The position numbers and the translations under genes are program-made. The notes under the pieces are model-generated. The model searched no databases, was not told the origin of the DNA, and worked only from the letters and a program-made list of their open reading frames with translations. From an uncultured bacterium (lineage in GTDB: Bacteria > Omnitrophota > Omnitrophia > Omnitrophales > Aquincolibacteriaceae), in assembly GCA_964562525.1 (NCBI GenBank), contig CAZLTL010000004.1, positions 6,171-70,170 of the forward strand: a stretch of 64,000 bases of DNA. Direction: 5' to 3'. This document shows positions 3,622 through 30,798 of this stretch, piece by piece. Each line of letters begins with the position of its first letter. Positions within the stretch are counted from its first letter, which is position 1.

Positions 3622-4752
3622 TTATTTGGAGAGGAATGCGATGATCTCGCGGGCGGCGGATTGGCTGGCGGATTGATTGCCGAGAATTTGATGGAGTTTT
3701 TCAAACTTTGATTTCATTGCCATCATTTTTGCTGGGGTTTTAAGATAATCAACCGCCAGTGCGGCGATTTTTTTAGGGCGGGCATCATTTTGAATAAACT
3801 CAGGAATGACGGGCTCATCTAAAAGTAAATTGCCCAAGCCTAAATATTTTACCTTCACCAGCATTCTTCCCAAAATATAAGTGGTCCATTCTGTTTTATA
3901 AAGTAAGAAAAAAGGTGTTCCGAGCAGTGCTGTCTCAAGCGTTGCGGTCCCCGAAGCGACGAGCGCGAAATCCATCGCGCGTACGGTTTCTTCAAAAGAG
4001 GTTTCATGGAATTGAACAGAGACGCCGGCTTGGCGCGCAAGTTCGGTGTAAAGTTCCGGCGGCAGTCCGGGAGCACGGTTGGCGTGGAAAACAGCTTGCG
4101 GCAGTGTCACTTGAATTAGCTTTGCCGCTTCGAGCATAACCGGAAAAATGCGCTTCAGCTCTCTTAGCCTTGACCCTGAAAAGAGTCCAATATGGACCCC
4201 ATCCTTGAGTGCCAGCTTTTTTTTGCAGTTAAAAAGGCTGGGCACAGAATTTAATTTTTCAATGAGAGGGTGCCCAACATATTCCGCTTCAACATTCCGG
4301 GCGCGGTAAAAATCTTTTTCAAACGGCAGCAAAACGAGCATTTTTTGAATATGTTTTTGAACAACCTTAACTCTGTTTTGACCCCAAGCCCAAAGTTGCG
4401 GCGCGATGTAATAATAAATCGGCGCTGTTTTTGAAACCCGCTTTGCCAACCGCAGATTGAATGCAGGGGAATCAAGACAGACGATCAAGTCAGGCTTTTC
4501 TTTTTCGATGTGCGCGACAGTTTCTTCGAATATTTTTTTATAAAGCGGATACTTGCGGATGACGTCCATGAATCCGAGCGATGCGATTTTAGTCATGTCG
4601 CGGTGGAGCGTCATGCCAGCGGCTTGCATTTGCGGCCCGCCGATACCTTGAATTTCAAGCGAGGGAATGCTTTTCTTTAGTTCGTGAATGAGTTCCGCGG
4701 CGTGATGGTCCGCGGAAGTTTCAAGCGCAGTAATGAAGATGCGTTTGTGCAT
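3622..4752 (-). CDS. lpxB: lipid-A-disaccharide synthase
   Basis: LpxB-like N-terminus MHKRIFITALETSADHHAAELIHELKK..GIGGPQM, ~376 aa. Start chosen at the internal Met (the ORF track extends 29 codons further upstream). Confidence 0.85.
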   Translation of the reverse strand: MHKRIFITALETSADHHAAELIHELKKSIPSLEIQGIGGPQMQAAGMTLHRDMTKIASLGFMDVIRKYPLYKKIFEETVAHIEKEKPDLIVCLDSPAFNLRLAKRVSKTAPIYYYIAPQLWAWGQNRVKVVQKHIQKMLVLLPFEKDFYRARNVEAEYVGHPLIEKLNSVPSLFNCKKKLALKDGVHIGLFSGSRLRELKRIFPVMLEAAKLIQVTLPQAVFHANRAPGLPPELYTELARQAGVSVQFHETSFEETVRAMDFALVASGTATLETALLGTPFFLLYKTEWTTYILGRMLVKVKYLGLGNLLLDEPVIPEFIQNDARPKKIAALAVDYLKTPAKMMAMKSKFEKLHQILGNQSASQSAAREIIAFLSK

Positions 4753-4759
4753 TCTGGTT

Positions 4760-5707
4760 TTAGCTCTGGGCTGCGCCCAACCGCGTTTGAGCTTGCTTGT
4801 CGATCGAGTCGCGAATTTGAATCGCCAGCGCCAACGCATCCCGCGCGGCGGTGTCCGGTTTCCCTAGGCCTGAGCCATCGAGAATGCTGTTAATGAAAAA
4901 CCGCAGTTCCTCTTTAAGCGGCTCACCTTTTTGGATATCAATGCTTTCTTGTTCGATTTTGTCCTCAATTTTTCGGATGATTTTACAGCTTTGCGCTTCG
5001 TAATCCAGGGAGAGATAGCCGTTTTCCTGGAAAACACGCAGACGGCGTTGTTTTTCGAAAGTCAGACGGGATGCCGTCAGATTAGCCACCGCGCCGTTTT
5101 CAAAGCGAATGCGAACATTCGCGATGTCTTCATAGGGCGTCAAAACATGAATGCCCATCGCATCAATGTTCTTGATGGGGGATTTGATCAGTCCCAGCAA
5201 AATATCGAGATCGTGGATCATGAGGTCAAGTACAACGCCGCAATCATTAATGCGGCCTGTAAAAGGTCCAAGGCGATGAATCTCGAGGAAACCCACGTTT
5301 TGAATAATTTCGGTGATACGCTTAAAGCCGGGGTTGTGCCGTTCAAGGTGTCCCACTTGCAGGGCTAAATTTTTACGTTTGGCGATTTCAATCAGCTCGT
5401 TGGCGTCTTCCAGTTTGAGCGTGATTGGTTTCTCAATCAAAGTGTGAATGCCCGCATTCAAAAAATCCTTGGCGACGGCATGATGCGTGAAAGTGGGGGT
5501 AACGATACTGACGGCGTCCACTTTACCGATGAGCTGGCGGTGATCCGTAAAAAAAGCGGTTTGATATTCATCCGCTTTGATTTTGGTTTCAGGATTGGAA
5601 TCGCAAATGCCCACCAATTCCGCTTCCGGAAGTTCATGATAAATGCGGGTATGAATTTTCCCTAGATAACCGACACCGATAACACCGACACGCAGTTTTT
5701 TTGACAT
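4760..5707 (-). CDS. Gfo/Idh/MocA-family NAD(P)-dependent oxidoreductase (possible GnnA-like UDP-GlcNAc 3-dehydrogenase; inference only)
   Basis: N-terminal Rossmann motif VGVIGVGYLGKIH. Sits immediately upstream of lpxB in the same orientation with an 8 nt gap. Confidence 0.75.
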   Translation of the reverse strand: MSKKLRVGVIGVGYLGKIHTRIYHELPEAELVGICDSNPETKIKADEYQTAFFTDHRQLIGKVDAVSIVTPTFTHHAVAKDFLNAGIHTLIEKPITLKLEDANELIEIAKRKNLALQVGHLERHNPGFKRITEIIQNVGFLEIHRLGPFTGRINDCGVVLDLMIHDLDILLGLIKSPIKNIDAMGIHVLTPYEDIANVRIRFENGAVANLTASRLTFEKQRRLRVFQENGYLSLDYEAQSCKIIRKIEDKIEQESIDIQKGEPLKEELRFFINSILDGSGLGKPDTAARDALALAIQIRDSIDKQAQTRLGAAQS

Positions 5708-5845: not shown

Positions 5846-7630
5846 ATGGCTTATCAGTCCGAAAAAAATTCGATGGTGATTTACCGCCGATTGCTTGAAT
5901 ACATCCGTCCGCATTTGTGGCGCTTTGGCATTGCGGTGGTGTGTATGGTGGGTTATGCCATTACGGTGGCTTTGGCTTCCGCGATTCCTTATCTGACAAT
6001 CAGCGGTTTGACCAATAAGCGCGAAGTGATTTTAAGCAGCCAGGTTATTTCGCATCTTCCTTTTGAATTTGATATCCGCTTTGGCGTGATTTGGCTGCCT
6101 GTTTTAATTTTTGCCATCATCGGTTTTAAGAGTTTCTTCGATTATGTCCTCAATTATCAAATGACCAATGTGGGAATTCGCGCTGTTCGCAAAGTGCGCG
6201 AAGATTTATTCGCGCATTTAACCCGGCTTTCCAGCGATTTTTACAGCCGCGGGCGAACAGGTGATTTTTTGAGCCGTATCACGAATGATGTCAGTGCCAT
6301 TCAGGGTGGCGTGACCGATGTTTTGACTGATTTGGTAAAACAGCCGATTACGGTGCTTTTCCTTCTTCCCCCGGTTTTTCTTTGGGGTGGTCCCAGCGGT
6401 TTGATTGCGGTCGGTGTTTTCTCGATCGTCGCTTTACCGATTGTGATTTTGGGAAAATCATTGCGCCGCACCACCAAAAAAATGCAGGAACGCACCGGTG
6501 AAATCACGGCGTTTATCGGCGAAAGTCTGATGGGAATGACGATTGTGAAAGCGTTCAACCAAGAAAACCGCATGATTGATAAATTTAACTCGATCAACCG
6601 CACTGTTTTTGATCATTATAAAAAAACTATCCGCGTTACGATTTTGCAAAGACCGATGATTGAAATGATCGGCGCGGCCGGCGCGGCGCTGGCTGTGGGA
6701 ATGTCGGTGGAGCAGTTTACACCCGAGCGGTTCACCTCGTTTCTTGTCGCGCTTTTCCTGCTTTATGAGCCGGTTAAAAAAATTAGCAAAGTCAATAACA
6801 CGATTCAGCAATCGGTCGCGGCGGGGCAGCGTATTTTTGAGATTTTAGATGAAGTTCCTTCTGTGCGTGATTTGCCTAATGCGATTCACTTTAAAGAGCC
6901 TGTTCGCGAAGTAGTTTATGACAAGATTTCTTTTAAATATCAAACCGGCGGCGAGATTTTTTCTGATTTTTCGCTTTCGGTAAAAGCGGGCGAAGTCCTG
7001 GCGATTGTCGGGCAAAGCGGGTCCGGCAAAAGCACCTTAGTGAATTTGTTGCCGCGTTTTTATGATCCCTCCGCCGGTGCCGTGCGCGTGAATGGAACTG
7101 ATTTAAGAAATATGACTTTAAAGTCATTACGCGACATGATTGCGATTGTGACTCAGGATACGATTTTGTTTAACGGGACTGTGCGTGAGAATATTGCTTA
7201 TGCCAATCCTCAGGCTTCGATGGCTGAAGTCGAAACTGCGGCGCAAGCGGCGCAAGCCCATACTTTTATTTCGGCGATGCCGCAAGGTTATGACACCAAT
7301 ATCGGCGACCGTGGTATGAATCTGTCGGGGGGGCAGCGACAAAGGCTTTCAATCGCACGCGCGCTTTTAAAAAATCCGCCGATTCTTATTTTGGATGAAG
7401 CGACTTCGAACCTTGATACGCAAAGCGAGTCTGAAGTTCAAATCGCGCTCGAAAATTTAATGAAAGGGCGCACCGTGTTTGTGATTGCGCATCGCTTATC
7501 AACCGTTAAAAAAGCCAACCGAATTATTGTTATGCGTCATGGTAAGGTCATTGAAGAGGGGACGCATGATGTGCTTCTCGCCAAAAACGGAATATATAAA
7601 GACCTTTACGATCTCCAATTCTCCGCTTAA
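5846..7630 (+). CDS. msbA: ABC transporter permease/ATPase fusion, MsbA-like lipid exporter
   Basis: Six-TM N-terminal domain plus Walker A GQSGSGKST, ABC signature LSGGQRQR and Walker B ILILDEAT. Start set at the Met preceded by AAGGGG (ORF track starts 39 codons earlier). Confidence 0.8.
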   Translation: MAYQSEKNSMVIYRRLLEYIRPHLWRFGIAVVCMVGYAITVALASAIPYLTISGLTNKREVILSSQVISHLPFEFDIRFGVIWLPVLIFAIIGFKSFFDYVLNYQMTNVGIRAVRKVREDLFAHLTRLSSDFYSRGRTGDFLSRITNDVSAIQGGVTDVLTDLVKQPITVLFLLPPVFLWGGPSGLIAVGVFSIVALPIVILGKSLRRTTKKMQERTGEITAFIGESLMGMTIVKAFNQENRMIDKFNSINRTVFDHYKKTIRVTILQRPMIEMIGAAGAALAVGMSVEQFTPERFTSFLVALFLLYEPVKKISKVNNTIQQSVAAGQRIFEILDEVPSVRDLPNAIHFKEPVREVVYDKISFKYQTGGEIFSDFSLSVKAGEVLAIVGQSGSGKSTLVNLLPRFYDPSAGAVRVNGTDLRNMTLKSLRDMIAIVTQDTILFNGTVRENIAYANPQASMAEVETAAQAAQAHTFISAMPQGYDTNIGDRGMNLSGGQRQRLSIARALLKNPPILILDEATSNLDTQSESEVQIALENLMKGRTVFVIAHRLSTVKKANRIIVMRHGKVIEEGTHDVLLAKNGIYKDLYDLQFSA

Positions 7631-9804: not shown

Positions 9805-10920
9805 ATGACGACAGCAAAAAAATACGCGGTAAAAAAAATCGGAATTATCGAACGTTATCAGGAGTATTTGCCTGTGACGGATAAAACCCCGATTATTTCT
9901 TTGAATGAAGGCAATACCCCGCTTATCTTGGCGGAAGCTTTACCCAAAGAGCTTGGCCTCAAAAATATCCGTATTTATTATAAATTCGAAGGTTTAAATC
10001 CGACGGGTTCATTTAAAGATCGCGGCATGACGATGGCGATTTCCAAGGCCATGGAAGCTGGTGCAACAGCGGTGATGTGCGCTTCCACAGGCAATACTTC
10101 AGCGGCGGCAGCGGCTTACGCATCGCGTTGCGGCATGAAATGTTTCGTGCTGATCCCTGAAGGGAAGATTGCGAAAGGGAAGCTGGTGCAGGCTTACCGT
10201 TACGGCGCGACGACCATCATGATTCGCGGTAACTTTGATGACGCGCTTGAAATGGTAAAAGAAATGACCAAGGATGGAAAAATTACGCTGGTCAACTCTG
10301 TGAACCCTTACCGTATTGAAGGTCAAAAAACCGCGGCGTTTGAAATTATTGATGATTTGGGCGATGCCCCGGAATATCACGCGATTCCCGTGGGCAATGC
10401 GGGAAATATCACGGCTTATTGGAAGGGTTATAACGAATATAAAAAAGTCGGTAAGTCGGAAGTCTTGCCGAAAATGCTCGGCTTCCAAGCTGAAGGTTCG
10501 GCACCGATTGTTTATGACAAAATTTTTTCAAAGCCTGAAACGATTGCGACCGCGATCCGTATCGGCAATCCCGCAAGCTGGAAGGGCGCATTAGCGGCGC
10601 GCGATGAATCCGGCGGTTTAATTGACGCGGTGACTGATGAGGAAATTGGAAAAGCTTATCGTTTTATTGCCGAGCGCGAAGGTGTTTTTGCTGAGCCGGC
10701 ATCCGCTGCGGCTGTTGCGGGTGTGGTGAAGCTCGCGAAGAAAAATTACTTTAAAGAAGGTACGCGTATTGTGATTACGCTCACCGGCGCGGGGCTTAAA
10801 GATGTGGATTATGCTTTTAGTTTCAACGATGAAATCAAGGTAGCCGACGCGAAAGTGTCAGCTATCCGGGAGATTGTGGAAAATGAAGTACATACTGGTA
10901 GTTCTAGCCGGCGCTTGTGA
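9805..10920 (+). CDS. thrC: threonine synthase
   Basis: PLP-lysine motif SFKDRGMT. 371 aa. Follows hom with a 4 nt gap. Confidence 0.9.
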
Positions 10921-21438: not shown

Positions 21439-21515
<77 letters not shown>

Positions 21516-21525
21516 TATAACGCTA

Positions 21526-21560
21526 AGAGCCACAGTCACTTAAGACTGTGGCTCTTTTGC
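21526..21560 (+). terminator. hairpin terminator after the tRNA (probably island-borne)
   Basis: AGAGCCACAGTC-acttaa-GACTGTGGCTCT followed by TTTTGCTTTG. Confidence 0.6.
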
Positions 21561-21582
21561 TTTGTAATCCATAAAATACCCC

Positions 21583-21604
21583 CTGTTAACACTTTTGTTA
21601 ACAG
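21583..21604. repeat. half-copy of the island GTTAACA-palindrome element (GTTAACACTTTTGTTAACAG)
   Basis: Shares GTTAACACTTTTG with the full repeats at 28323, 30077 and 30584. Sits 68 nt after the tRNA 3' end and 26 nt before the first island gene. Confidence 0.5.
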
Positions 21605-21629
21605 TTCATCCATTGAAGCGTGAACCTAT

Positions 21630-22460
21630 ATGACAGAATGTATTTCTCAAGCCCTTAAAGACCTTTTGCCGGAGCATCCGCACAAGCGATATGCCCCTAT
21701 AGAGGTTTGCATTTATTGCGGCAGCAAACAAAATTTAAGTGATGAGCATATTATCCCGTATGGTTTTGGCGGTAGATGGGTGCTTCCCAAAGCTAGCTGT
21801 TTTAATTGTGCAAAAAAAACGAGTCAATTTGAAATGGTTTGTCTTCGTACAATGTATGGGCCATTACGCCAGCTATACGATCTCCCTAGCAGAAAAGGGA
21901 AAGCAGATAAGTTACCTTTAAAAATTAAATATGTGCCATCTAATGAATGGCAAACAGTTTTGGTGGATCAGGTTGATTATCCTTTTTTAGTTGGTTTCCC
22001 TTATTTCTCATTGCCTAATCTGGTTTCAGGTGCGAAAGATGCGGAGAGAACTGGAGCAACAACCAAGCGCATATGGATACGGGGCGCTTCTGCATATGTA
22101 AATTTCGATGAGCATCTAAAAGCTTTAAGTCAGCGATTAAAAGCGTACGAGTTATTTCCAGAGTTTCATCTTCATGTTAAAGAATTTTGTCAGATGCTTG
22201 TTAAGACGGCTTATTCATATGCAGTGGCTGAGCTGGGTTATGGCGTATTTAAGCCTTTTCTGTTACCGCACATCGTCCAAGATGAGTTATCCAATTGTGC
22301 AGACTTTATCGGTAGCTTAGAAAAAGATGAGATTCCGGGGAAAGCACTTCACGAATTATTTATCTGCAATACTATGAGAGGCGATATCGCGGTAAGAGTG
22401 CGCTTTTTAGCAAAATTAGGCACGCCAACTTATTTTGTTGTTGTGGGATCAGTTAATTGA
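21630..22460 (+). CDS. HNH-nuclease-domain protein with a C-terminal domain of unknown function
   Basis: N-terminal CIYCGSK..SDEHIIPYGFGG..CFNCAKKT matches the C-x2-C / D-H-I-x-P / N / C-x2-C HNH pattern. The ~200 aa C-terminal region has no recognisable motif. Confidence 0.55.
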   Translation: MTECISQALKDLLPEHPHKRYAPIEVCIYCGSKQNLSDEHIIPYGFGGRWVLPKASCFNCAKKTSQFEMVCLRTMYGPLRQLYDLPSRKGKADKLPLKIKYVPSNEWQTVLVDQVDYPFLVGFPYFSLPNLVSGAKDAERTGATTKRIWIRGASAYVNFDEHLKALSQRLKAYELFPEFHLHVKEFCQMLVKTAYSYAVAELGYGVFKPFLLPHIVQDELSNCADFIGSLEKDEIPGKALHELFICNTMRGDIAVRVRFLAKLGTPTYFVVVGSVN

Positions 22461-22473
22461 GGAATTTGATTAA

Positions 22474-23214
22474 ATGATTTGTCGGTATTGCAATCAGGAA
22501 ACAAAGCTCATAAAGTCCCATATAGTTCCCGAGAAGTTTTATTTGCAGGCGTTAGACCGGACTCAAAAAAACGACAAGCTTATTATCATTGATAAGCGAA
22601 AAAAATATACACCTGCATCTCCAATCGGACTTTATGACCTTGGCATTTTATGCGCTTCATGTGACGGTAAGCTTGGTGTCTTTGACAACGCCGCACAGTT
22701 GTTATTTCTAAAAGACATTCAACGATACAAGTCCCCAGATAAAGATTTGTATGTTTTGCCCTTATCTGCTTTTGACTACCAAAAAATAAAATTATTCATT
22801 GTTTCAGTGCTGTGGAGAGCATCAATATCTACACTAGAAGCTTTTGAGGCTGTTCAGCTCGGCTATAAATACGAAAAAATAGCATTAGATATTATAAAAG
22901 ATCCATCAAAAGATGATGATGACACATTTGCTTTTTTTGTTTTGAAATTTAAGAATAAGCCCAACTTAAGAATGGATGGGATATTTGTGCCTCCAATGAG
23001 GAACAAAATCGATGGTATAAATAGCTATAGGTTTGTTTTTGCCGGGTATGTTTTTCATATTAAAGTTGATAGTCGCAAGTATCCTCCTCTATTTCATGGT
23101 CTTTGTTTGAGTTCAAAGAGAGACTTTTTAATAATCGAGACCAGCCCTGAGAATGAAAAATTCACATTGGAACATATGAACGGAATACGGATTGCTAGGC
23201 AAAATTTACAGTAA
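22474..23214 (+). CDS. HNH-nuclease-domain protein, paralog of the upstream gene
   Basis: CRYCNQ..KSHIVPEKF..CASCDGK HNH-like N-terminus. GAGGA RBS 10 nt upstream. AT-rich with an unknown C-terminal domain. Confidence 0.55.
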   Translation: MICRYCNQETKLIKSHIVPEKFYLQALDRTQKNDKLIIIDKRKKYTPASPIGLYDLGILCASCDGKLGVFDNAAQLLFLKDIQRYKSPDKDLYVLPLSAFDYQKIKLFIVSVLWRASISTLEAFEAVQLGYKYEKIALDIIKDPSKDDDDTFAFFVLKFKNKPNLRMDGIFVPPMRNKIDGINSYRFVFAGYVFHIKVDSRKYPPLFHGLCLSSKRDFLIIETSPENEKFTLEHMNGIRIARQNLQ

Positions 23215-23621
23215 ATTACAAACACACCTAAATAAAAGGTTCTGGATACCGTGGGGACAGGTCGATTTTCTTCATCTTTAAGGGACATGATCCCGAATGT
23301 GCGGGATATGTGTGGGGGGGGATGTAAAAAGTAAAATGCCTCTTGCTTGGAAACCGAACCGTTAGCCATTTTTTTGCGAAACTGAGTTTTAAGATAGCCT
23401 GTCTTTAGCAAACGCTGTAAAGCCTTATAGCAAAATAAGCTATAACCCATTTCAACAAGTTTTTTATGCCTTCCCGAAATAAAAATATTTTCTAGCGAAA
23501 AATAATTTTATTTAAAAAAGTTAAAAAACTCCTCTTTTCACCACATTAGTGTAGTGAGAGCCATCGTTAACTCTTATGTTTAAGAGAATGACGAGGGTTT
23601 TTAAAAGAAGAGGAAAAATAT

Positions 23622-23837
23622 ATGAAGAAAAAAGCACGCACTCCGCTCAAATCAATCCGCATTTACTGCACCACAGTCTGTTCCAGTCAGTTAAAAGAAG
23701 TTCGCTTGTGTTCTATGAGCGATTGTCCGCTTTATATCTATCGGTTTGGGCGAAATCCATCCAGATCAGGCATTGGTGGGACCTTAGATAAGATTACTCG
23801 AAAAAATGATGTTGAGTCGGGCAAAACTACAAAATAA
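23622..23837 (+). CDS. small Cys-rich (putative zinc-ribbon) protein; alternative frame 23576-23791 is equally possible
   Basis: 71 aa with C-x3-C ... C-x4-C spacing. AGAGGAAAAATAT RBS before the ATG. Confidence 0.3.
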   Translation: MKKKARTPLKSIRIYCTTVCSSQLKEVRLCSMSDCPLYIYRFGRNPSRSGIGGTLDKITRKNDVESGKTTK

Positions 23838-23847
23838 GGGCATTTCC

Positions 23848-24078
23848 ATGAATAAATCAGAATCATATTCGACCCAAAATTTATATGAGGCGGCCTTTTG
23901 TTTCTGCAAGGGTTTTAAACTTGCCGGTAAACGCCGGGAAGGTAGCAAGGTAACTGTTCTTTTTGAAGGTAAAAATGTGCGCGAAGAAGCCATTAAATTT
24001 TACAACGGTGGAAAAATCGAAGCCAAGGCGCTTACCGATGCGTACCGAACTCTCAAAGATTATATTTTCGAGAGATAA
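23848..24078 (+). CDS. small conserved mobile-element protein (DUF5659-like, recalled from memory)
   Basis: YSTQNLYEAAFCFCKGFKL..FYNG..DAYRTLKDYI pattern that I associate with a small phage/ICE-borne family. Start Met is uncertain. Confidence 0.4.
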   Translation: MNKSESYSTQNLYEAAFCFCKGFKLAGKRREGSKVTVLFEGKNVREEAIKFYNGGKIEAKALTDAYRTLKDYIFER

Positions 24079-24105
24079 GCTGCAAAAAAATGAGGAGAAA
24101 AAAGA

Positions 24106-24609
24106 ATGGCTCTTTTCAATTCAATCCACTCAAGCATGTGGGAAGATGACAAATTCCGTAAACTTGCAGATCTCAAATCTAGACTTTTATTTATCTATGC
24201 TTTTACCAATCATAGATGTTCAGTTTCTGGAATATACAAAATTTCCATCGAAACGATGAGTTTTGAGCTGGGGTTTTCCCCAGACTGTATAACGCAACTG
24301 CAAGAAGTCATTGATGTCGGTTTGGTTTCATACGACTTCAATAAAAATGTGATTTGGGTGCATGGAAAAATGAAGTTTGATAAGTCGTGGCGAGCAAAAA
24401 TGAGATTAAAATCGATTCAACGCAGCATAGATGAGTTTTCTAAATGTTCATTTATGAGCGATGTTTATTCTCGCTATCCCTTTTTAATTGAACTTGCACT
24501 TGAGTCAGACAAAAGAATGACAGAGCTCCGGGGAAGTCTGGCGCCAGAGGTAGAGTCAGCTTTAGAGGCAGAGGAAGCGAAAGAGGAAGAGATAAGAGGG
24601 TCTATATAG
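24106..24609 (+). CDS. hypothetical protein (island cargo; possibly a replication/regulatory winged-helix protein, speculative)
   Basis: 167 aa. GAGGAG RBS 11 nt upstream. Acidic C-terminal tail. Confidence 0.45.
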   Translation: MALFNSIHSSMWEDDKFRKLADLKSRLLFIYAFTNHRCSVSGIYKISIETMSFELGFSPDCITQLQEVIDVGLVSYDFNKNVIWVHGKMKFDKSWRAKMRLKSIQRSIDEFSKCSFMSDVYSRYPFLIELALESDKRMTELRGSLAPEVESALEAEEAKEEEIRGSI

Positions 24610-24612
24610 GGT

Positions 24613-24846
24613 ATGGATACCGTCTCCGTTGTTGGTAGTTATTTAAATATGCGCGAAGCTGGAAAATACATTGGCCAGAGTTATCGCTGGATGCAAAGAA
24701 ATTACATTGATTTGATCAAGAACGGAGTTCCTGTGTTTCGATTACCCAAAGACTCGCCTAAAGGCCGGTTAGTGTTTGAAAGGGCCGGTTTGGATCAATA
24801 CATGTTTCAATGTCGCATTGAAGGTAACTTTGAAACCTTTGGGTAA
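24613..24846 (+). CDS. excisionase/AlpA-like helix-turn-helix DNA-binding protein
   Basis: 77 aa. LNMREAGKYIGQSYRWM..GVPVFRLPK..GRLVFERAGLDQYM resembles the HTH_17/Xis family. Located directly upstream of the integrase. Confidence 0.55.
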   Translation: MDTVSVVGSYLNMREAGKYIGQSYRWMQRNYIDLIKNGVPVFRLPKDSPKGRLVFERAGLDQYMFQCRIEGNFETFG

Positions 24847-24903
24847 CCTACCCAAAGGTCTAATAAGAAACTCAGCAATACAAATGGGATTAAGAAAGAG
24901 AGG

Positions 24904-24924
24904 GTGTTAACAGTGTTTGTTAAC
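24904..24924. repeat. half-copy of the island GTTAACA-palindrome element (GTGTTAACAGTGTTTGTTAACG)
   Basis: Matches the first half of the full repeat TGTTAACAGTAGTTGTTAAC. Confidence 0.45.
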
Positions 24925-24938
24925 GAAAAGGAACAAAG

Positions 24939-25076
24939 TCAGCGTTTTTCAGCTTCTTTGGTGAGGATTAGCTGTACCAAGTTAGACAGGGAGCGACCTT
25001 CGCGCTTGGCACGGGCCTCCAGCTTCTTTTTAAGCTCGTCTGTAACCTTGAATGAGAGTGTTTGGTCTTTTTTCAT
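24939..25076 (-). CDS. ribbon-helix-helix (CopG/Arc-like) DNA-binding protein, 45 aa (not in the ORF track because it is under 60 aa)
   Basis: Translation MKKDQTLSFKVTDELKKKLEARAKREGRSLSNLVQLILTKEAEKR shows the classic RHH beta-strand plus two helices pattern. Divergent from the integrase gene. Confidence 0.55.
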   Translation of the reverse strand: MKKDQTLSFKVTDELKKKLEARAKREGRSLSNLVQLILTKEAEKR

Positions 25077-25154
25077 GTAAGTAAATGTAAGTAATTATAT
25101 GTTGCTTTCTCGGGATAATCCTCTAAAATAAAGTAAGTAAAAGTAAGTAATTAT
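25077..25154. repeat. two 22-bp direct repeats (GTAAGTAAaTGTAAGTAATTAT / GTAAGTAAaaGTAAGTAATTAT) in the int/RHH divergent promoter region
   Basis: 25077-25098 and 25133-25154 match at 21 of 22 positions. Each is itself a tandem GTAAGTAA unit. Confidence 0.6.
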
Positions 25155-25162
25155 GAGGATAT

Positions 25163-26197
25163 ATGGCTAGCATCTTTAAACGGAATAAAACCTGGTATGT
25201 GTCCTTCCTCGCAAGTGGAAAGCAGGTAGTTAAGAGCTTGAAAACTAGCGATGAGAAGCTCGCTAGGCATTTGAAGAAGGAATTTGAGGTGAAGTCCCGC
25301 CTTAAAGAACTTCGCACTGAAAAACGCATTTCAGTCGAGGAATATTGCAAGCAATACCTAGATGAAGTGACATATCGGAAGCAATCGACCAATGTTGCTG
25401 ATTATTCCCGGATTCGAGACTTTTTAGGAACGCATGGAAAGAAAACCATCAACAGCATTAACTACGATGACATCAGGGCTTATCTGAAACGCTATGAGTC
25501 TAAATCTCCCAAGACCTATAACGAGGTTATTCTGACCCTGAAACGATTTTTTAGACTGGCCGTCGAGCGAAGCTATATCCTGAAAAATCCGGTAGTAGGT
25601 TTTCGCCATAAAAAAGTTCCTCAAACATTGCCGCGCTTTCTGACAGACGAAGAATACGGCACTTTGGAGAAATTATCCATAGATGAGGGTATCTATCCAA
25701 TGGTGGTTGTGGCCAGGTACACGGGATTGAGGCTGGCAGAGCTCTTACATCTTGAATGGCAAGATTTTGATTGGGGACGGAAACTGGTTAGGGTGCTGAA
25801 CAAACCCAAATTCAATCATACGGTTAAAAATTATCATACGCGAGTTGTGCCGGTTTCTGATGAGTTGAGAGATAAGTTATTGCCCTATATCAAATCAGAA
25901 GGGCTTTGTTTTCCCGGCCCCGAAGGAAGTCCCTATTACCATGAGGGGCCTCGAAAACTCATCCGCCGAATTATTGATAAGTCAGGCTTGCGCGAAGGCC
26001 GACGCATGGGATGGCACGAATTTCGTCATACTTTTGCTTCACGATTAGCTCAGGAAGGTATTTCTCTCTATAAAATTTCTAAGTGGCTTGGACACTCCGA
26101 TTTTAAAACCACACAGATTTATGCTCATTTCGCTCCTATATACGATGATGATATAGAAAAGCTATCTATAAAGCCTATTTTCTCAAAAATCGCTTAA
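25163..26197 (+). CDS. site-specific tyrosine recombinase (phage-type integrase)
   Basis: N-terminal arm-binding-like domain (KRNKTWYVSF). Catalytic R..H-x-x-R..Y residues (LRLAEL, HEFRHTFAS, IYAH). GAGGAT RBS. Confidence 0.9.
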   Translation: MASIFKRNKTWYVSFLASGKQVVKSLKTSDEKLARHLKKEFEVKSRLKELRTEKRISVEEYCKQYLDEVTYRKQSTNVADYSRIRDFLGTHGKKTINSINYDDIRAYLKRYESKSPKTYNEVILTLKRFFRLAVERSYILKNPVVGFRHKKVPQTLPRFLTDEEYGTLEKLSIDEGIYPMVVVARYTGLRLAELLHLEWQDFDWGRKLVRVLNKPKFNHTVKNYHTRVVPVSDELRDKLLPYIKSEGLCFPGPEGSPYYHEGPRKLIRRIIDKSGLREGRRMGWHEFRHTFASRLAQEGISLYKISKWLGHSDFKTTQIYAHFAPIYDDDIEKLSIKPIFSKIA

Positions 26198-26322
26198 TAG
26201 CTCCTTGCGTTTTGTCGATGCTCTATAGGCAGTCTGTAAAAGGAGGCTTTTAAACCTATTTTGAATAGTGTAATATCTACATATCACCAATACACTTACA
26301 TCAAAAAAAGCACTATTTAGCA

Positions 26323-27039
26323 ATGACCAGCAGCATTAAAAATTCAAAGCTCGATAATTTTCAGTTAGTTGCTTTTTGTCCAGGAATACAAATAGCGGAT
26401 AAATTAAAAGCTGCGAGTGAAATAAATAATGCGGCGCGGGGTCTTTTTGATGGTGATCCCACGATTTTTCCAATCCCAGGCGAAGCGCCTCCCGAAGTTC
26501 CTCGCATTATATTAAAATCAAAAGATAATTTGCGTCTTTTTCAAGTTGCGGGCAATCGTATTGATTTTATTTATAAATTATCCGATGCAGAAAGAGAATC
26601 TGAAGTATTGAAGGTAGGCAAGGAACTATTTCAAATTTTCTCATCTATTTGTGCAGCCATATTGGAACAAAACGGAACAAAATTTACAAGAACAGCATTG
26701 GTTACTAATTGGGCAATTTTCTTAGAGGAAGAATCTCCTAATTATTTGGTAAAAACATATACAAAAGAACCGGCAATTTTTAATTCACCAGCAGCTTTTG
26801 AACTTCATAACCTTAATAAAAGTGCATTTTCCAAGTGTAAAGTAAACCAATGGTTAAGAATAAAATCGGCCCAAACTCCTCAGGGAACTCCGAATGTTTT
26901 AAATGTAATTGTAGATATAAATTCATTAGCGGAAGAAGCATATGAAGTTAATACAGATTTTTTAAGTTCTTTTCTCTCAGAGGCGATCAATGAGACTTCA
27001 AAGATTATCAAGTCTCATTTTGGAACGATTTTAAAATGA
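26323..27039 (+). CDS. hypothetical protein, cassette gene 1 of 3
   Basis: 238 aa with no recognisable motif. Stop overlaps the next start (ATGA). Confidence 0.45.
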   Translation: MTSSIKNSKLDNFQLVAFCPGIQIADKLKAASEINNAARGLFDGDPTIFPIPGEAPPEVPRIILKSKDNLRLFQVAGNRIDFIYKLSDAERESEVLKVGKELFQIFSSICAAILEQNGTKFTRTALVTNWAIFLEEESPNYLVKTYTKEPAIFNSPAAFELHNLNKSAFSKCKVNQWLRIKSAQTPQGTPNVLNVIVDINSLAEEAYEVNTDFLSSFLSEAINETSKIIKSHFGTILK

Positions 27040-27686
27040 GAACCATTCGCCTTTCTGAAAAGTCTATTTTTGGCAATTGTGCAGTTCAAACAGTGAATGC
27101 ACCTCAAAACTCTTCTTCTCCTGAGCCCAATCTTTTTTTGAAAAACTGTGTAAATGAGGATCTGTTTAAAATTCTTGTTCAAAGGGTTGATGGTTCGCAA
27201 AATTTTCAAATTGAAGATATATCCAATTTGCCCGTAGTTACTGTCCGCGAAGCTCCCTCATTAATATTTGGAGCTTATGTAATGCAGCTGGTAAACCATG
27301 TTTCTCGTCCTGAAAGTTTTCATATTGTCGCAAGTGGGGATTCGGTCATTGATATGTCGACAATTATCTGTGATTTTAAAAAATTGATACCCCAAGAGAA
27401 AGCAGATGAGCGGGAGCTTCTTTTTTTAGAGGCGGCAAAGCGATTTAAACAATTTCCTCAAGTCAAAGCGATTTATATTCAGGAGTGCCGTGAAGATTTG
27501 TTTATTTATGGTTTGTTGGATATTAAAGAATACGATGATGATCTGATGGATTCATTACTTGATGAAGAATATGAGATAAGGCAACAATTTAAAGATTTTA
27601 TACTTTCTTTCTTCTATCCCCCTATTGGAGACACCGACCGAAAAGATGTAGTACATCCTGCTTCACGTTGCATTTTTTCGAGGTAG
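27036..27686 (+). CDS. hypothetical protein, cassette gene 2 of 3
   Basis: 216 aa, acidic, no recognisable motif. Translationally coupled on both sides. Confidence 0.45.
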   Translation: MRTIRLSEKSIFGNCAVQTVNAPQNSSSPEPNLFLKNCVNEDLFKILVQRVDGSQNFQIEDISNLPVVTVREAPSLIFGAYVMQLVNHVSRPESFHIVASGDSVIDMSTIICDFKKLIPQEKADERELLFLEAAKRFKQFPQVKAIYIQECREDLFIYGLLDIKEYDDDLMDSLLDEEYEIRQQFKDFILSFFYPPIGDTDRKDVVHPASRCIFSR

Positions 27687-28321
27687 TTGTGGCAGATTAC
27701 TCTGTGCATTATGCCCAAGCTACTCACAACAGATTGACCGCGACCAAACTTGTTGATGAACCACCTCACCACGATTGGGGAATAACGGCCGCCTTTTACT
27801 CAGCCATCCATTATTTTGAATGCTGGCTGTTTGGCGAAACGGAAAAACACACCGAAACGAGTATTCCGGTAGACCCAAATAATAACAGATGGAAATTCTC
27901 ACCGCATGCGTGGCGAGAGAAATTAGTTGAGCAGAAAATGTCACGAAATGCGTTTAAAGCCTTCCGAAAGTTGAGGGAAAATAGTGAGACTTCAAGATAT
28001 TTGACATTTTCAATGGCCCCAATCTCGATGCCCGCGGCACAGTTTTTCAAACCAGAGGCAGCAAAAAAAATAGTCGCAGTAGAGCTTGAAACATTTCTCT
28101 CCGAACTTAGAATCCCATGGAGAAAATTTGTTTATTCTTTAGAGTTGGATCAGTCTATTGGCCCCTTGGCGCCATTTATTATCAGAAGCATGTTTGCTTC
28201 ATTTAGTGACCAAACACAATTTCTTCAAACATCCAAATCCGATTTAACCAAGATTTTTGGCGCACAAACGTCGGCGTTGATACGAGCAGTTGAAGCTAAA
28301 GGTTTTAGTTTCTCGGTCTAA
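27668..28321 (+). CDS. hypothetical protein, cassette gene 3 of 3
   Basis: 217 aa. Overlaps gene 2 by 19 nt. No recognisable motif. Confidence 0.45.
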   Translation: MHFFEVVVADYSVHYAQATHNRLTATKLVDEPPHHDWGITAAFYSAIHYFECWLFGETEKHTETSIPVDPNNNRWKFSPHAWREKLVEQKMSRNAFKAFRKLRENSETSRYLTFSMAPISMPAAQFFKPEAAKKIVAVELETFLSELRIPWRKFVYSLELDQSIGPLAPFIIRSMFASFSDQTQFLQTSKSDLTKIFGAQTSALIRAVEAKGFSFSV

Positions 28322-28322
28322 A

Positions 28323-28368
28323 TTTGTTAACAATAGTTGTTAACACTTTTGATGGTAAATAGCGGTAA
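28323..28368 (+). repeat. island repeat copy A (TTTGTTAACAATAGTTGTTAACACTTTTGATGGTAAATAGCGGTAA)
   Basis: Starts 2 nt after the stop of cassette gene 3, with a TATAAT at 28385-28390 downstream. Precedes the transglutaminase-like gene. Confidence 0.7.
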
Positions 28369-28397
28369 GATCTTTAGATTAGAGTATAATTCAGCTT

Positions 28398-29549
28398 ATG
28401 TTTTTTTATTCGATTTCGTTCTTCCGCCTGCTGCGAATTGCTTTACCCTCATTGATAGTTCTTATGTTTTTACAAACTTATCTTCATGCGCAAGAGAACG
28501 TGGGCTCTATACCAACAAGCTCCATTCTAGAAAAGGTCGAAGAATTAGCAAACACGCCAGAAGCTAATATTGATCTTGAAAAAGAAATCTTTGAGCTTCT
28601 AAAGATTACTAATCGGGATTTGCTGGGTAAAGATATTGATATTCAAATTTATCAATCTCAAATTAGTGAGTTGGCACAGGAGTTAGCGGTTTATTTGGAA
28701 GGCGAGAGTGATCCTTACAAACGTATAAATAGAATGAATGAGTTTCTTTTTAAAGAAAAAAAGTTTTCAGCTGATTTTGGCAAAATCAACCCGAATGCAC
28801 CGCTACTAACTTCTGTTCTTGATGGCAATCCTGGGATGTGTGACACGTTGTCACTCCTTTATCGATTGGTGGGATTGCGACTTGGAATGCCACTGGAAAG
28901 TATTTTTCTTACAAACCATACGTTTGTACGCTATGTCTCGAATGGTTTTAGCATCAATATCGAAGCCACTGATGCCGGAAAATCGTATAACGATGACTGG
29001 TATGTTGAACAGTTCAAGCTCTCTGGTTCTAAAACAGATTTTTTTTCTGTCCCTGGAGCCAAGGCAACTATTTTTGCTTATTTGATTAACCTTGGCGCCC
29101 ATTATAGAACGCACGGTCGTCTTGATGATTCAATCGCAATCCACCGCAAGGTAGTCGATTTGTATCCAAATATATTTTTGGCTCACATCAATTTGGGGTG
29201 GGGCTACTTGGGTAAAAAAATGTTTGATGAGGCCATAAAGGAATATGAGGTCGCCTTGACTTTGTTTCCGAATGAATCTCTTGCTTGGCGTATGTTAGGA
29301 GCTGCGAGCGTTCAGAAAAATATGAAAACAGATGCAATAGCATATTTGGAGAAGGCGCTTGCTCTTAATAAAGATGATGAAGAGGCAAAAGATTATCTTC
29401 GTATTGCAAAACAGTTGCCGGATGCAAATCGTAAAGGGAGAGATTGGGGAATGGACTCATATTATAAAGAGCTGGGTATCGCTCCCAAGAGTAAAAAAAT
29501 AAAGGAGGAGGTTGCAAATGAGAATCGACCAGTGGTCAACCAATGGTAA
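28398..29549 (+). CDS. secreted transglutaminase-like cysteine-protease-fold protein with C-terminal TPR repeats
   Basis: Signal peptide. Core GMCDTLSLLY..LGMP..FLTNHTFVRY resembles the transglutaminase-like Cys/His core. C-terminal TPR-like repeats (EAIKEYEVALTLFP.., AIAYLEKALALN). Confidence 0.6.
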   Translation: MFFYSISFFRLLRIALPSLIVLMFLQTYLHAQENVGSIPTSSILEKVEELANTPEANIDLEKEIFELLKITNRDLLGKDIDIQIYQSQISELAQELAVYLEGESDPYKRINRMNEFLFKEKKFSADFGKINPNAPLLTSVLDGNPGMCDTLSLLYRLVGLRLGMPLESIFLTNHTFVRYVSNGFSINIEATDAGKSYNDDWYVEQFKLSGSKTDFFSVPGAKATIFAYLINLGAHYRTHGRLDDSIAIHRKVVDLYPNIFLAHINLGWGYLGKKMFDEAIKEYEVALTLFPNESLAWRMLGAASVQKNMKTDAIAYLEKALALNKDDEEAKDYLRIAKQLPDANRKGRDWGMDSYYKELGIAPKSKKIKEEVANENRPVVNQW

Positions 29550-29553
29550 TACG

Positions 29554-30054
29554 ATGCATAGCAGAAAACTCATAACACTTTTTTTTCTTGTGGCGGGGTG
29601 TATTTGCTTTGCAGGGCTTAGTGCGGCAAAAGATAATGATGTTGTTTACCAGTCAGGTGTCCATGAGAGCAAAGTGGGAAACGTGGATATAAATTATCTT
29701 TTTCAAAACTATGTTGGAACAATAGAAGCAGATAGGGCGTTAAAAGAGCGGGCAAGCGAAAAAGACGTTGTAAGAAATCAAATCAAAGAGCAAATCGAAG
29801 CTCTAAAAGCTCAGGCTGATGATAGCGATGCTTTGTATGAAAAGGTATCAGAGTTGAAGAAATATGATGATGAAACGCTTGCGTCGATTGCCGAAGAACG
29901 AAAAGTGGTTTTAGGGCAGATATTTCAGAAAATAAATTCATCTATATCAGAATATGGGCAAAGAGAAGGGTATTCAATTATTTATAATGCTGGCTCCCGA
30001 AAGAAAGGCAAGTCGATAACAAAAGATATTTTGAAGCTATTGAATAATTCATAA
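29554..30054 (+). CDS. OmpH/Skp-like periplasmic chaperone
   Basis: Signal peptide followed by a coiled-coil region and a C-terminus ..GYSIIYNAGSRKKGKSITKDILKLL resembling the Skp C-terminus (..AVAYNSSDVKDITADVLKQV). Confidence 0.55.
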   Translation: MHSRKLITLFFLVAGCICFAGLSAAKDNDVVYQSGVHESKVGNVDINYLFQNYVGTIEADRALKERASEKDVVRNQIKEQIEALKAQADDSDALYEKVSELKKYDDETLASIAEERKVVLGQIFQKINSSISEYGQREGYSIIYNAGSRKKGKSITKDILKLLNNS

Positions 30055-30076
30055 GATATTGTGATGCGCTTGGATA

Positions 30077-30134
30077 CCCAGCGGTCTATTTGTTAACAGT
30101 AGTTGTTAACACTTTTGATGGCAAATAGCGGTTA
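30077..30134 (+). repeat. island repeat copy B (ACCCAGCGGTCTATTTGTTAACAGTAGTTGTTAACACTTTTGATGGCAAATAGCGGTTAA)
   Basis: Differs from copy C at only two positions across ~58 bp. Precedes the 30161 gene. Confidence 0.7.
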
Positions 30135-30160
30135 AAAGTGAATGAAAAAAAGGGGGAGGG

Positions 30161-30529
30161 ATGATTTCATTTTTAAGAAAATTTCTACCGAATCAAGATT
30201 TGAAAGTTGCATTTAAAAATGTAATGGAAATAAGGATGGGGGCGCCTTTTAATGGCGCAGATTTGGAGCTAACAGGTAGTTGGATTCCTGATCTTCCTCA
30301 GGGGGGATGGCAAGATTTAACAGCATGTAGTAGCGACAAGCGATATGTAGGTCTTGTGCGCTGGGAGCATCTCGAAGGAAGTCCAAACTTCGTTGTTTAC
30401 ACAATTGATACCAAAAGGAAAGACTTCACAAAAGCTGATCGCGTAGCTGGCTGCTGCAAGAAAATATGGTGGGATGAAAATTCTCAGAAATTTGAATTTG
30501 ATCGTTTTTTGTATGTAAAAACCAAATGA
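30161..30529 (+). CDS. hypothetical protein (island cargo)
   Basis: 122 aa. Strong AGGGGGAGGG RBS. Confidence 0.45.
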   Translation: MISFLRKFLPNQDLKVAFKNVMEIRMGAPFNGADLELTGSWIPDLPQGGWQDLTACSSDKRYVGLVRWEHLEGSPNFVVYTIDTKRKDFTKADRVAGCCKKIWWDENSQKFEFDRFLYVKTK

Positions 30530-30583
30530 AGCCACAGAAATCTTGCTATTTGCTCTAGATGTCGCTTAGCAATTTTTGACTTA

Positions 30584-30641
30584 CCCAACGGTCTATTTGT
30601 TAACAGTAGTTGTTAACACTTTTGATGGTAAATAGCGGTAA
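30584..30641 (+). repeat. island repeat copy C
   Basis: ACCCAACGGTCTATTTGTTAACAGTAGTTGTTAACACTTTTGATGGTAAATAGCGGTAA. Last copy, ~105 nt before attR. Confidence 0.7.
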
Positions 30642-30735
30642 ATATCGGTCAAACTCGGATAAATAAATTTTCAAAAAATTCTCCTAACTCCTTTATTTTT
30701 GGTTATATCGGTCAATGTTGGATAATATCGGTAAA
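30642..30735. repeat. three ATATCGGT(C/A)AA direct repeats (candidate integrase arm-type sites) proximal to attR
   Basis: atatcggtcaaactcggataa (30642), atatcggtcaatgttggataa (30705) and atatcggtaaa (30725). Confidence 0.5.
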
Positions 30736-30748
30736 TGTTTTGAAGCTC

Positions 30749-30798
30749 GCTCATAACCCAAAGGTCCCAGGTTCAAATCCTGGCCCCGCTACCATATA
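30749..30798 (+). repeat. attR: 50-bp exact direct repeat of the tRNA-fMet 3' half (anticodon loop to CCA plus TATA)
   Basis: gctcataacccaaaggtcccaggttcaaatcctggccccgctaccatata is identical to 21470-21519. Confidence 0.9.

Follow-up and report, generated by a model that had tools for sequence, protein, structure and literature searches.

The window analysed here, a stretch of 64,000 nucleotides (nt) at positions 6,171 to 70,170 of contig CAZLTL010000004.1 (GenBank assembly GCA_964562525.1, from an uncultured Omnitrophota bacterium of the Aquincolibacteriaceae), contains a cassette of three small genes, the open reading frames (ORFs) ORF1, ORF2 and ORF3, which follow one another on the same strand (Table 1). 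The cassette lies in a segment of about 9.3 kb (21470–30798) bounded by two copies, 9.3 kb apart, of a repeat made up of the 3′-terminal 46 nt of tRNA-Met and 4 additional nt, and the guanine–cytosine (GC) content of this segment is 0.35–0.42 as against 0.45–0.50 in its flanks. Because it sits inside this low-GC segment bounded by attachment (att) repeats and beside a tyrosine integrase gene, we regard the cassette as cargo of a tRNA-Met integrative island. As a preliminary description of this DNA had reported, the genes stand directly downstream of the integrase, which ends 125 nt before ORF1, and a copy of a ~47-nt repeat (copy A) begins 2 nt past the ORF3 stop; this copy delimits the cassette on the downstream side, and at other loci the conserved cassette does not include it.

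The gene calls of that description needed one correction. The ATGA shared by the ORF1 stop and the ORF2 start (27036–27039) was confirmed, as were the lengths of ORF1 and ORF2 (238 and 216 residues), whereas the 217 residues given for ORF3 and its 19-nt overlap with ORF2 were not. The overlap arose because the first possible start codon of the open frame spanning 27668–28321, a TTG at 27668, had been taken. An M-A-D/E-Y/F N-terminus is present in 48 of 48 ORF3 homologues and aligns with the GTG at 27689, and the public gene call on an identical sequence is the 210-residue GTG product; these two observations rule out the TTG. The GTG comes 2 nt after the ORF2 stop codon (TAG, 27684–27686), and the cassette is still tightly packed, with spacings of −4 nt between ORF1 and ORF2 and +2 nt between ORF2 and ORF3. 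All three are real genes, with homologues in unrelated taxa at E 1e-40 to 1e-80. A scan for promoters and terminators around the cassette found no excess of sites over shuffled sequence, and Rfam matched only tRNA on the DNA, with no described RNA family, RNA antitoxins included, in the cassette.

The trio is conserved as a unit. Contigs were fetched by exact-protein look-ups and pattern scans and then searched with hidden Markov models (HMMs) of all three families. In about 18 non-redundant loci, i.e., every locus with enough sequence, homologues of ORF1, ORF2 and ORF3 (E-values of 1e-15 to 1e-83) occur in this one order and on one strand, the ORF2 homologue always between the other two, with intergenic gaps of −4 to +12 nt when the MADY start of ORF3 is used. 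The homologues are thus found together rather than scattered singly. Organism labels exist for few of these loci and comprise metagenome-assembled genomes (MAGs) of Desulfobacteraceae, Aerophobetes, Aminicenantes and Nitrospirota as well as one Aenigmatarchaeota label. Since the flanking genes change from locus to locus, the trio moves as a stand-alone unit. One set of flanks (loci L002–L010, L018 and L024) consists of a DUF1156 methylase, DUF8076 and an SNF2 helicase, with an AAA-like protein of 869 residues upstream; other sets comprise an HD gene, AbiEii and a split Mg-chelatase-like gene, or MNT/HepT pairs, PD-(D/E)XK genes and transposases, or a Type ISP restriction–modification (R-M) gene with an additional MNT/HepT pair. 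True MNT/HepT pairs lie near the trio in L014 and L044.

Several of these loci have peculiarities of their own. In L002 (1116–4707) and L006 (1996–4738) the trio is preceded by a protein of 869 or 586 residues with a faint AAA_22 match and by a 329-residue protein without a Pfam match, which could be the ATPase part or other components of a DUF499-type 'Hma'/BREX-related system. Such DUF499/DUF1156 loci are described as carrying embedded backup HEPN effectors in the sections of PMC12839542 that we draw on, and those sections do not describe the trio. Genes of this kind flank some copies of the trio, whereas neither the window nor most other trio loci contain the core set of ATPase, DUF1156 N6-methylase and helicase; the trio in DUF1156-type loci is an embedded passenger and not a core part. 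In L013, a Nitrospirota MAG (3887–5419 and 10225–10722), the trio together with HD and helix-turn-helix proteins is flanked by two Mg-chelatase/ComM-like genes, one full-length and the other a fragment, with the AbiEii gene just past the fragment, an arrangement that suggests an island inserted into comM. Four-gene variants occur in L014 (5731–7459), L028 (1021–2655) and L032 (933–2586). Here, ORF2 carries an added C-terminal extension (~115 residues in L014 and L032, ~60 in L028) and a gene for a 114–116-residue PF05168-type HEPN protein (RxRNxADY; E 4e-4) precedes the ORF3 homologue; the possibilities that the extended C-terminus is an MNT domain or a copy of the ORF2 core domain were not supported.

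None of the three proteins belongs to a family in the libraries searched, in keeping with the earlier suggestion of an undescribed module. The trio and its relatives (66, 49, 132 and 19 relatives) yielded no family in Pfam, NCBIfam or PADLOC, the sole trace being TIGR04255. The three window proteins had no match in PADLOC-DB v2 at E ≤ 1, and comparison of all three families with PDB sequences, by sequence as well as by profile, returned no match.

Structure prediction was informative for ORF3, for which 49 homologue clusters were found. The AlphaFold2 (AF2) model built from the 49-sequence alignment (predicted local distance difference test, pLDDT, 94.1; predicted template modelling score, pTM, 0.88) is all-helical, with helices at residues 4–21, 28–47, 86–107 and 122–140, an insert at 48–85 that contains a helix at 72–83, and tail helices at 142–203. 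Residues 1 to ~145 of the model form a four-helix bundle of HEPN fold. In a Foldseek search of PDB the best match was 2hsb (AF_0298; probability 1.0, TM-score 0.72 on the target), other top matches were the sacsin HEPN domain (3o10), 1wol (ST0689), 4nqf, HepT (7bxo/6m6u) and AbiV (9bj7), and each match of low root-mean-square deviation is a HEPN domain. The preliminary description had seen three domainless proteins without a recognisable motif, which is correct at the sequence level and fails for ORF3 in the predicted structure; the HEPN-like character it had raised for the third protein was found in the fold and not in a canonical Rx4–6H motif.

Conserved residues of ORF3 point to a variant active site. 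Across the 49-sequence alignment 13 residues are invariant (F36, Y37, H41, E44, H54, E56, H73, R76, L95, S99, R103, Y104 and L105) and a further three nearly so (R93, R96 and E100). HEPN domains are characterized by an acidic residue in helix 2, an arginine and a polar residue in helix 3, and an insert between these helices; in the AF0298 and AbiV variants the arginine is kept and the histidine is supplied by the insert, and these are predicted to be still catalytic (PMC3710099). AbiV has been reported in a preprint as an rRNA-cleaving RNase toxin of a toxin–antitoxin (TA)-type defence system (bioRxiv 10.1101/2024.05.05.592566). ORF3 resembles these structural neighbours in that E44 is invariant within helix 28–47, that R96 of helix 3 is at least 90% conserved and followed by D or E, and that the insert carries invariant histidines, H54 and H73, which probably complete an alternative RNase site. 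A stretch in the insert, RWKFSPH, had the spacing of a HEPN Rx5H motif and was rejected as such, the arginine not being conserved in the alignment; H73, which lies within it, was retained as a candidate alternative histidine. ORF3 differs from AF_0298 and AbiV in having no sequence-profile similarity to them (Pfam, hhalign) and a different invariant set (H41, E44, H54, E56, H73, R76, R103, Y104). The window's ORF3 moreover has an extra helical tail of ~65 residues at its C-terminus, which is present in 16 of the 49 clusters, i.e., about one third; the rest are of a short form of ~150 residues.

The protein encoded upstream, ORF2, is acidic whereas ORF3 is basic (isoelectric points, pI, in Table 1), and the pair therefore has the charge pattern typical of antitoxins and toxins. 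Conservation in ORF2 is strongly polarized: the mean pairwise identity is 56% in the C-terminal part and 19% in the hypervariable N-terminal half. The C-terminal domain of ~90 residues follows the consensus KVKSIYVQxYREELQIxVLL..YDxDLMDxLLDxEYDIRKxF...FxFFYPP...K.DFIHPxAxCIYxR. Neither ORF2, its 19 relatives included, in Pfam nor ORF2 in PDB gave a match. Its identification as a degenerate MNT antitoxin was rejected: hhalign of the C-terminal domain with three MNTs from the fetched loci gave a probability of 0.1.

ORF1 is a member of a large family. Its signature is FDGxPxILPIPxDAPxEIPRIIL (residues 42–64). A word-seeded profile search retrieved 67 homologue clusters, all devoid of Pfam domains, and an exhaustive profile search 2,164 representatives (clusters at 50% identity) at E ≤ 1e-3, of which 351 were at E ≤ 1e-30; the listed matches are ~180–330 residues long, mostly 220–250, and Pfam found no match in 132 family representatives. 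The AF2 model (pLDDT 92.7, pTM 0.90) has an alpha + beta fold in which the order beta-alpha-beta3-alpha occurs twice; hhalign found no internal sequence repeat, and a duplication was thus not detected at the sequence level. Among viral predicted structures there was one match (E 7e-10, TM-scores 0.54/0.61), and TBP and VETF-L, which bear on a candidate pseudo-dimeric, TBP-like fold of ORF1, came up only among the viral matches and at low TM-scores. TIGR04255, an uncharacterised NCBIfam family of sporadic distribution, is similar to ORF1 in size and is matched by 2 of the 132 representatives (E down to 6.7e-4), below the curated cut-off, and neither by the window's ORF1 at E ≤ 1 nor by the other 130; we found no literature on this family, and the link adds no function. 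One divergent ORF1 clade (~27% identity; L042, 368–1093, and L043, 3–572) appears solitary, with no co-oriented downstream partner.

Divergent ORF1 relatives stay first in their operons while the partner genes change. In L047 the ORF1 relative is followed by a 156-residue protein and a PIN domain (30 bits, above the gathering cut-off), and in L048 by a 121-residue middle protein with a C-terminal TacA1-antitoxin-like segment (E 1.3e-3) and a GNAT acetyltransferase as third gene (27.8 bits, above the cut-off). L049 and L051 pair it with a protein of three transmembrane helices, followed in L051 by an alpha/beta hydrolase. The simplest arrangement was found on ColE1-type plasmids of ~3 kb (27 PLSDB records) from Salmonella, E. 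coli, Klebsiella, Shigella and Rahnella, on which an ORF1-like gene and a small gene for a protein with two transmembrane helices are the sole cargo beyond replication and mobilisation genes (e.g., L055, NZ_CP055028.1; L057, NZ_CP050720.1 pSE95-4; L058; L059). The ORF1-family protein has 217–225 residues there, the overlapping partner 121–163 with two C-terminal transmembrane helices, and all are annotated as hypothetical. The L055 and L056 plasmids carry a VbhA antitoxin gene as well. Of 5,426 complete E. coli genomes, 6 contain the Salmonella-type pair (L057), in each case on a small plasmid, and RefSeq labels these E. coli relatives throughout as 'hypothetical protein'. PADLOC gave only noise on ten proteins of the variant cassettes, and no literature was found on the plasmid protein accessions. 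The ORF1 family seems to be a hub to which exchangeable effectors are attached. Mainly because toxin-type domains hold the third position and antitoxin-like adaptors the second in these variants, we assign a putative effector role to ORF3 and a putative neutralising role to ORF2.

With slightly better than even confidence, we interpret the cassette as a tripartite TA-like or abortive-infection (Abi)-type module carried as cargo by the 9.3-kb tRNA-Met island; confidence in the role of each gene is lower than in this interpretation as a whole. A defence or accessory role is suggested by context, i.e., by the occurrence of ORF1-family systems in mobile islands, R-M-like loci, next to TA pairs and on small plasmids. 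In the proposed mechanism, the three products would form a complex in which ORF3, a basic AF_0298/AbiV-like HEPN-type RNase with an alternative active site, is the putative effector, and ORF2 would act as acidic neutraliser or adaptor, its conserved C-terminal domain binding ORF3 and keeping it inactive. Specificity, or reception of the trigger, may reside in the hypervariable N-terminal half of ORF2. ORF1 would be the constant partner that controls the effector pair, either as sensor or regulator or as a further subunit with a neutralising or stabilising effect. Upon a trigger, for instance when a phage infects or the element is lost, ORF3 would be released and would cleave cellular or invader RNA, resulting in growth arrest. 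The arrest by ORF3 and its neutralisation through ORF2 binding are suggested by positional analogy with the PIN and TacA-like/GNAT cassettes.

A number of observations weigh against this interpretation. No histidine stands five to seven residues after R96 in ORF3, where S99, R103 and Y104 are found instead of an Rx4–6H histidine, and some HEPN domains, including ones without the motif, are non-catalytic binders (PMC3710099). The tie of ORF3 to HEPN rests on its modelled fold: Foldseek E-values are weak (best 0.09), ORF3 has no Pfam HEPN or HEPN_AbiV match, only one of its 49 relatives touches PF05168 (E 0.083), and hhalign against HepT and small PF05168-type HEPN proteins gave probabilities below 1. 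That its conserved residues cluster in space is likewise suggested by the helix topology of the model. ORF2 has no recognisable antitoxin or DNA-binding domain and no GS...DxD motif, and its 19 relatives show no NTP_transf_2 match, so that the MNT idea failed. The ORF1 model has no convincing fold match in PDB (TM-score ≤ 0.3), which makes any role for it a guess. Lastly, the picture of partner swapping is drawn from about 8 variant loci of a family with ~2,000 clusters, and the neighbours of the trio in L012 look like housekeeping genes.

Known systems provide partial precedents. In its proposed way of working, the cassette comes closest to HEPN-based TA/Abi systems (AbiV, HepT-MntA) and to tripartite TA operons, and it belongs to none of these, because it has no canonical Rx4–6H motif, no MNT, no SecB-like or DNA-binding third component and no profile match. 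AbiV is neutralised by RNA (type III TA), whereas in the cassette the HEPN gene comes after two protein-coding genes and Rfam matched no RNA family. In the HEPN-MNT system HepT-MntA (type VII) a small HEPN-fold gene likewise comes right after a small acidic partner gene; it shares genomic islands with the trio (L014, L044), and HepT structures are among the fold matches of ORF3. In contrast to HepT-MntA, ORF2 is not a nucleotidyltransferase (no GSx10–11DxD), ORF3 has no RX4HXY, and an extra conserved gene, ORF1, heads the operon. The general layout of type II TA systems is present, with adjacent small genes and the acidic ORF2 before the basic ORF3 at a 2-nt gap. Tripartite TA systems such as omega-epsilon-zeta and paaR-paaA-parE resemble the cassette in having three small co-transcribed genes and an extra constant component by the antitoxin–toxin pair. 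In contrast to these, ORF1 is similar to none of Omega, PaaR and SecB, the searches detected no DNA-binding domain, and the ORF1 family also pairs directly with membrane proteins. Modular defence systems in which a constant component is combined with exchangeable effectors (e.g., CBASS, Thoeris, Avs; Panacea-type hyperpromiscuous antitoxins) are comparable to the cassettes headed by ORF1 as a conserved first gene with changing HEPN-like, PIN, GNAT, membrane-protein or hydrolase partners; the trio and its variants differ from them in showing no homology, no PADLOC match and no nucleotide cyclase, TIR, STAND or DUF4065 domain.

The same molecular parts could alternatively form an addiction module, which would stabilise the carrier island or plasmid by post-segregational killing and would not be directed against phages. 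The position of the cassette directly beside the integrase inside an excisable island, the acidic and basic protein pair, and the small plasmids, on which the ORF1-like and membrane-protein pair occupies the classic place of an addiction module, are all consistent with such a function. We nevertheless consider it unlikely as the main role, as the trio in several loci is part of, or adjoins, R-M-like and Abi/TA clusters and not mobility genes, and a high-copy ColE1-type plasmid hardly needs an addiction module. Addiction and phage defence are not mutually exclusive.

Were ORF3 a non-catalytic HEPN-like binder of ligands or nucleic acids, the trio could serve the mobile element as a complex for regulation or RNA processing and contain no toxin. 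The missing motif histidine and the non-catalytic HEPN domains mentioned above would be accounted for, and so would the absence of a sequence-level match to any toxin family. Against this stand the 13 invariant residues, whose richness in His, Glu and Arg suggests an active site rather than a scaffold, the predicted activity of AF0298/AbiV-type HEPNs with an alternative histidine together with the reported RNase activity of AbiV, and the fact that PIN and GNAT toxin domains and membrane proteins hold the same operon position in paralogous cassettes; we consider a non-toxin function improbable.

Quite improbable, too, is that ORF1 is a dedicated antitoxin chaperone or stabiliser and that ORF2 and ORF3 are an ordinary type II TA pair. 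Toxin–antitoxin–chaperone (TAC) systems are a known tripartite precedent in which a SecB-like chaperone serves TA pairs of different toxin families (PMC9098466), and ORF1 relatives accompany TA-like pairs of HEPN-like, PIN and TacA-like/GNAT families in a similar way. However, SecB was found neither by Pfam in ORF1 nor among the top 50 PDB fold matches of its model, ORF1 heads the operon and is not its last gene, and relatives that pair directly with membrane proteins do so without an antitoxin-like middle gene, for which a controller is the better fit. A structural, replication or packaging module of an integrated phage or satellite is close to refuted: among the island's genes there are indeed those for an integrase, a DnaD-like replication protein and a protein the size of an excisionase, and ORF1 has a weak match to the unannotated phage family phrog_24110 (E 6.7e-5) besides the one viral predicted structure, but relatives of the trio are absent from the 2.9 million viral contigs and 50,697 phage genomes of IMG/VR and INPHARED, and most trio loci have no phage-like genes, the systems being found in R-M-like operons and on 3-kb plasmids.

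Extending the TA-like or Abi-type interpretation beyond the window, we tentatively raise the possibility, which we would not yet favour, that the ORF1 family defines a new modular Abi/TA class in which a constant alpha + beta sensor or controller protein is combined with interchangeable effectors. These effectors might include non-canonical HEPN, PIN and GNAT proteins, small pore-forming membrane proteins and hydrolases, coupled to the ORF1-like protein directly or via hypervariable adaptors such as ORF2. ORF1-family systems are present in MAGs from four or more bacterial phyla, in one MAG with an archaeal label and on minimal plasmids of enterobacteria. If the model holds, three unannotated protein families and a new tripartite, effector-swapping architecture would be added to the TA/Abi repertoire, and ORF3 would be another HEPN effector without the Rx4–6H histidine, which bears on the prediction of an alternative histidine in AF0298 and AbiV made in 2013. 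The ORF1 family is large and has no Pfam or PADLOC model, and the ~3-kb plasmids of Salmonella and E. coli make it directly testable in a model organism. The cassette marks the cargo of a tRNA-Met island here and recurs in R-M-like loci, and is thus useful for the annotation of defence islands.

Table 1 Coordinates of the cassette and of island features in the window
Feature	Coordinates	Strand	Remarks
ORF1	26323–27039	+	238 residues; ATG start; ORF list
ORF2	27036–27686	+	216 residues; ATG start; pI 4.8 (4.84)
ORF3	27689–28321	+	210 residues from GTG; pI 8.9 (8.93)
GAGG ribosome-binding site of ORF3	27680–27683	+	5 nt before GTG 27689; read from sequence
Conserved C-terminal domain of ORF2	27408–27686	+	Residues ~125–216; alignments
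C-terminal helical extension of ORF3	28124–28318	+	Residues ~146–210; alignment, homologue lengths, AF2 helices
Tyrosine integrase of the island	25163–26197	+	Pfam Phage_integrase, E 1.4e-28
tRNA-Met	21439–21515		Rfam/tRNA match
attL	21470–21519		50-nt perfect direct repeat, within/at end of tRNA-Met
attR	30749–30798		Second copy of the 50-nt repeat
Repeat copy A, ~47 nt, GTTAAC-containing (TTTGTTAACAaTAGTTGTTAACACTTTTGATGGtAAATAGCGGTAA)	28323–28369	.	Conserved core; repeat alignment; before gene 28398
Further copy of ~47-nt repeat	30089–30135		Upstream of gene 30161
Further copy of ~47-nt repeat	30596–30642		Before attR

Ahead of the trio the island encodes an HNH_5 protein, a second HNH-like protein, a DUF5659 protein, the DnaD-like replication protein, the excisionase-sized protein (77 residues) and the integrase. 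The part to the right of the cassette (28398–30529) holds housekeeping-looking genes for a TPR/transglutaminase-like protein, an OmpH/Skp-like protein and a 122-residue protein, each behind a copy of the ~47-nt repeat, and the island may be composite. This repeat contains two GTTAAC-containing half-sites (TTTGTTAACAGTAGTTGTTAACACTTTTGATGG.AAATAGCGGTAA), its three copies share 79–95% identity, and a shorter palindromic version or partial inverted copy lies at 21584–21603, ahead of the HNH gene (21630); the element might serve the island as a common operator or promoter. The two adjacent genes at the left end (21630–22460, with the HNH_5 domain, and 22474–23214) may be another nuclease-type accessory or defence pair. 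The product of the second matches phrog_19960 (E 3e-17) and has the N-terminal motif CxxC...H-I-[IV]-P in common with its HNH_5 neighbour (BLASTP E 0.002). Just before the integrase start, a 22-nt direct repeat (GTAAGTAAA[TA]GTAAGTAATTAT) occurs at 25077–25098 and 25133–25154 in copies that are 95% identical; the integrase or a regulator may bind to it.

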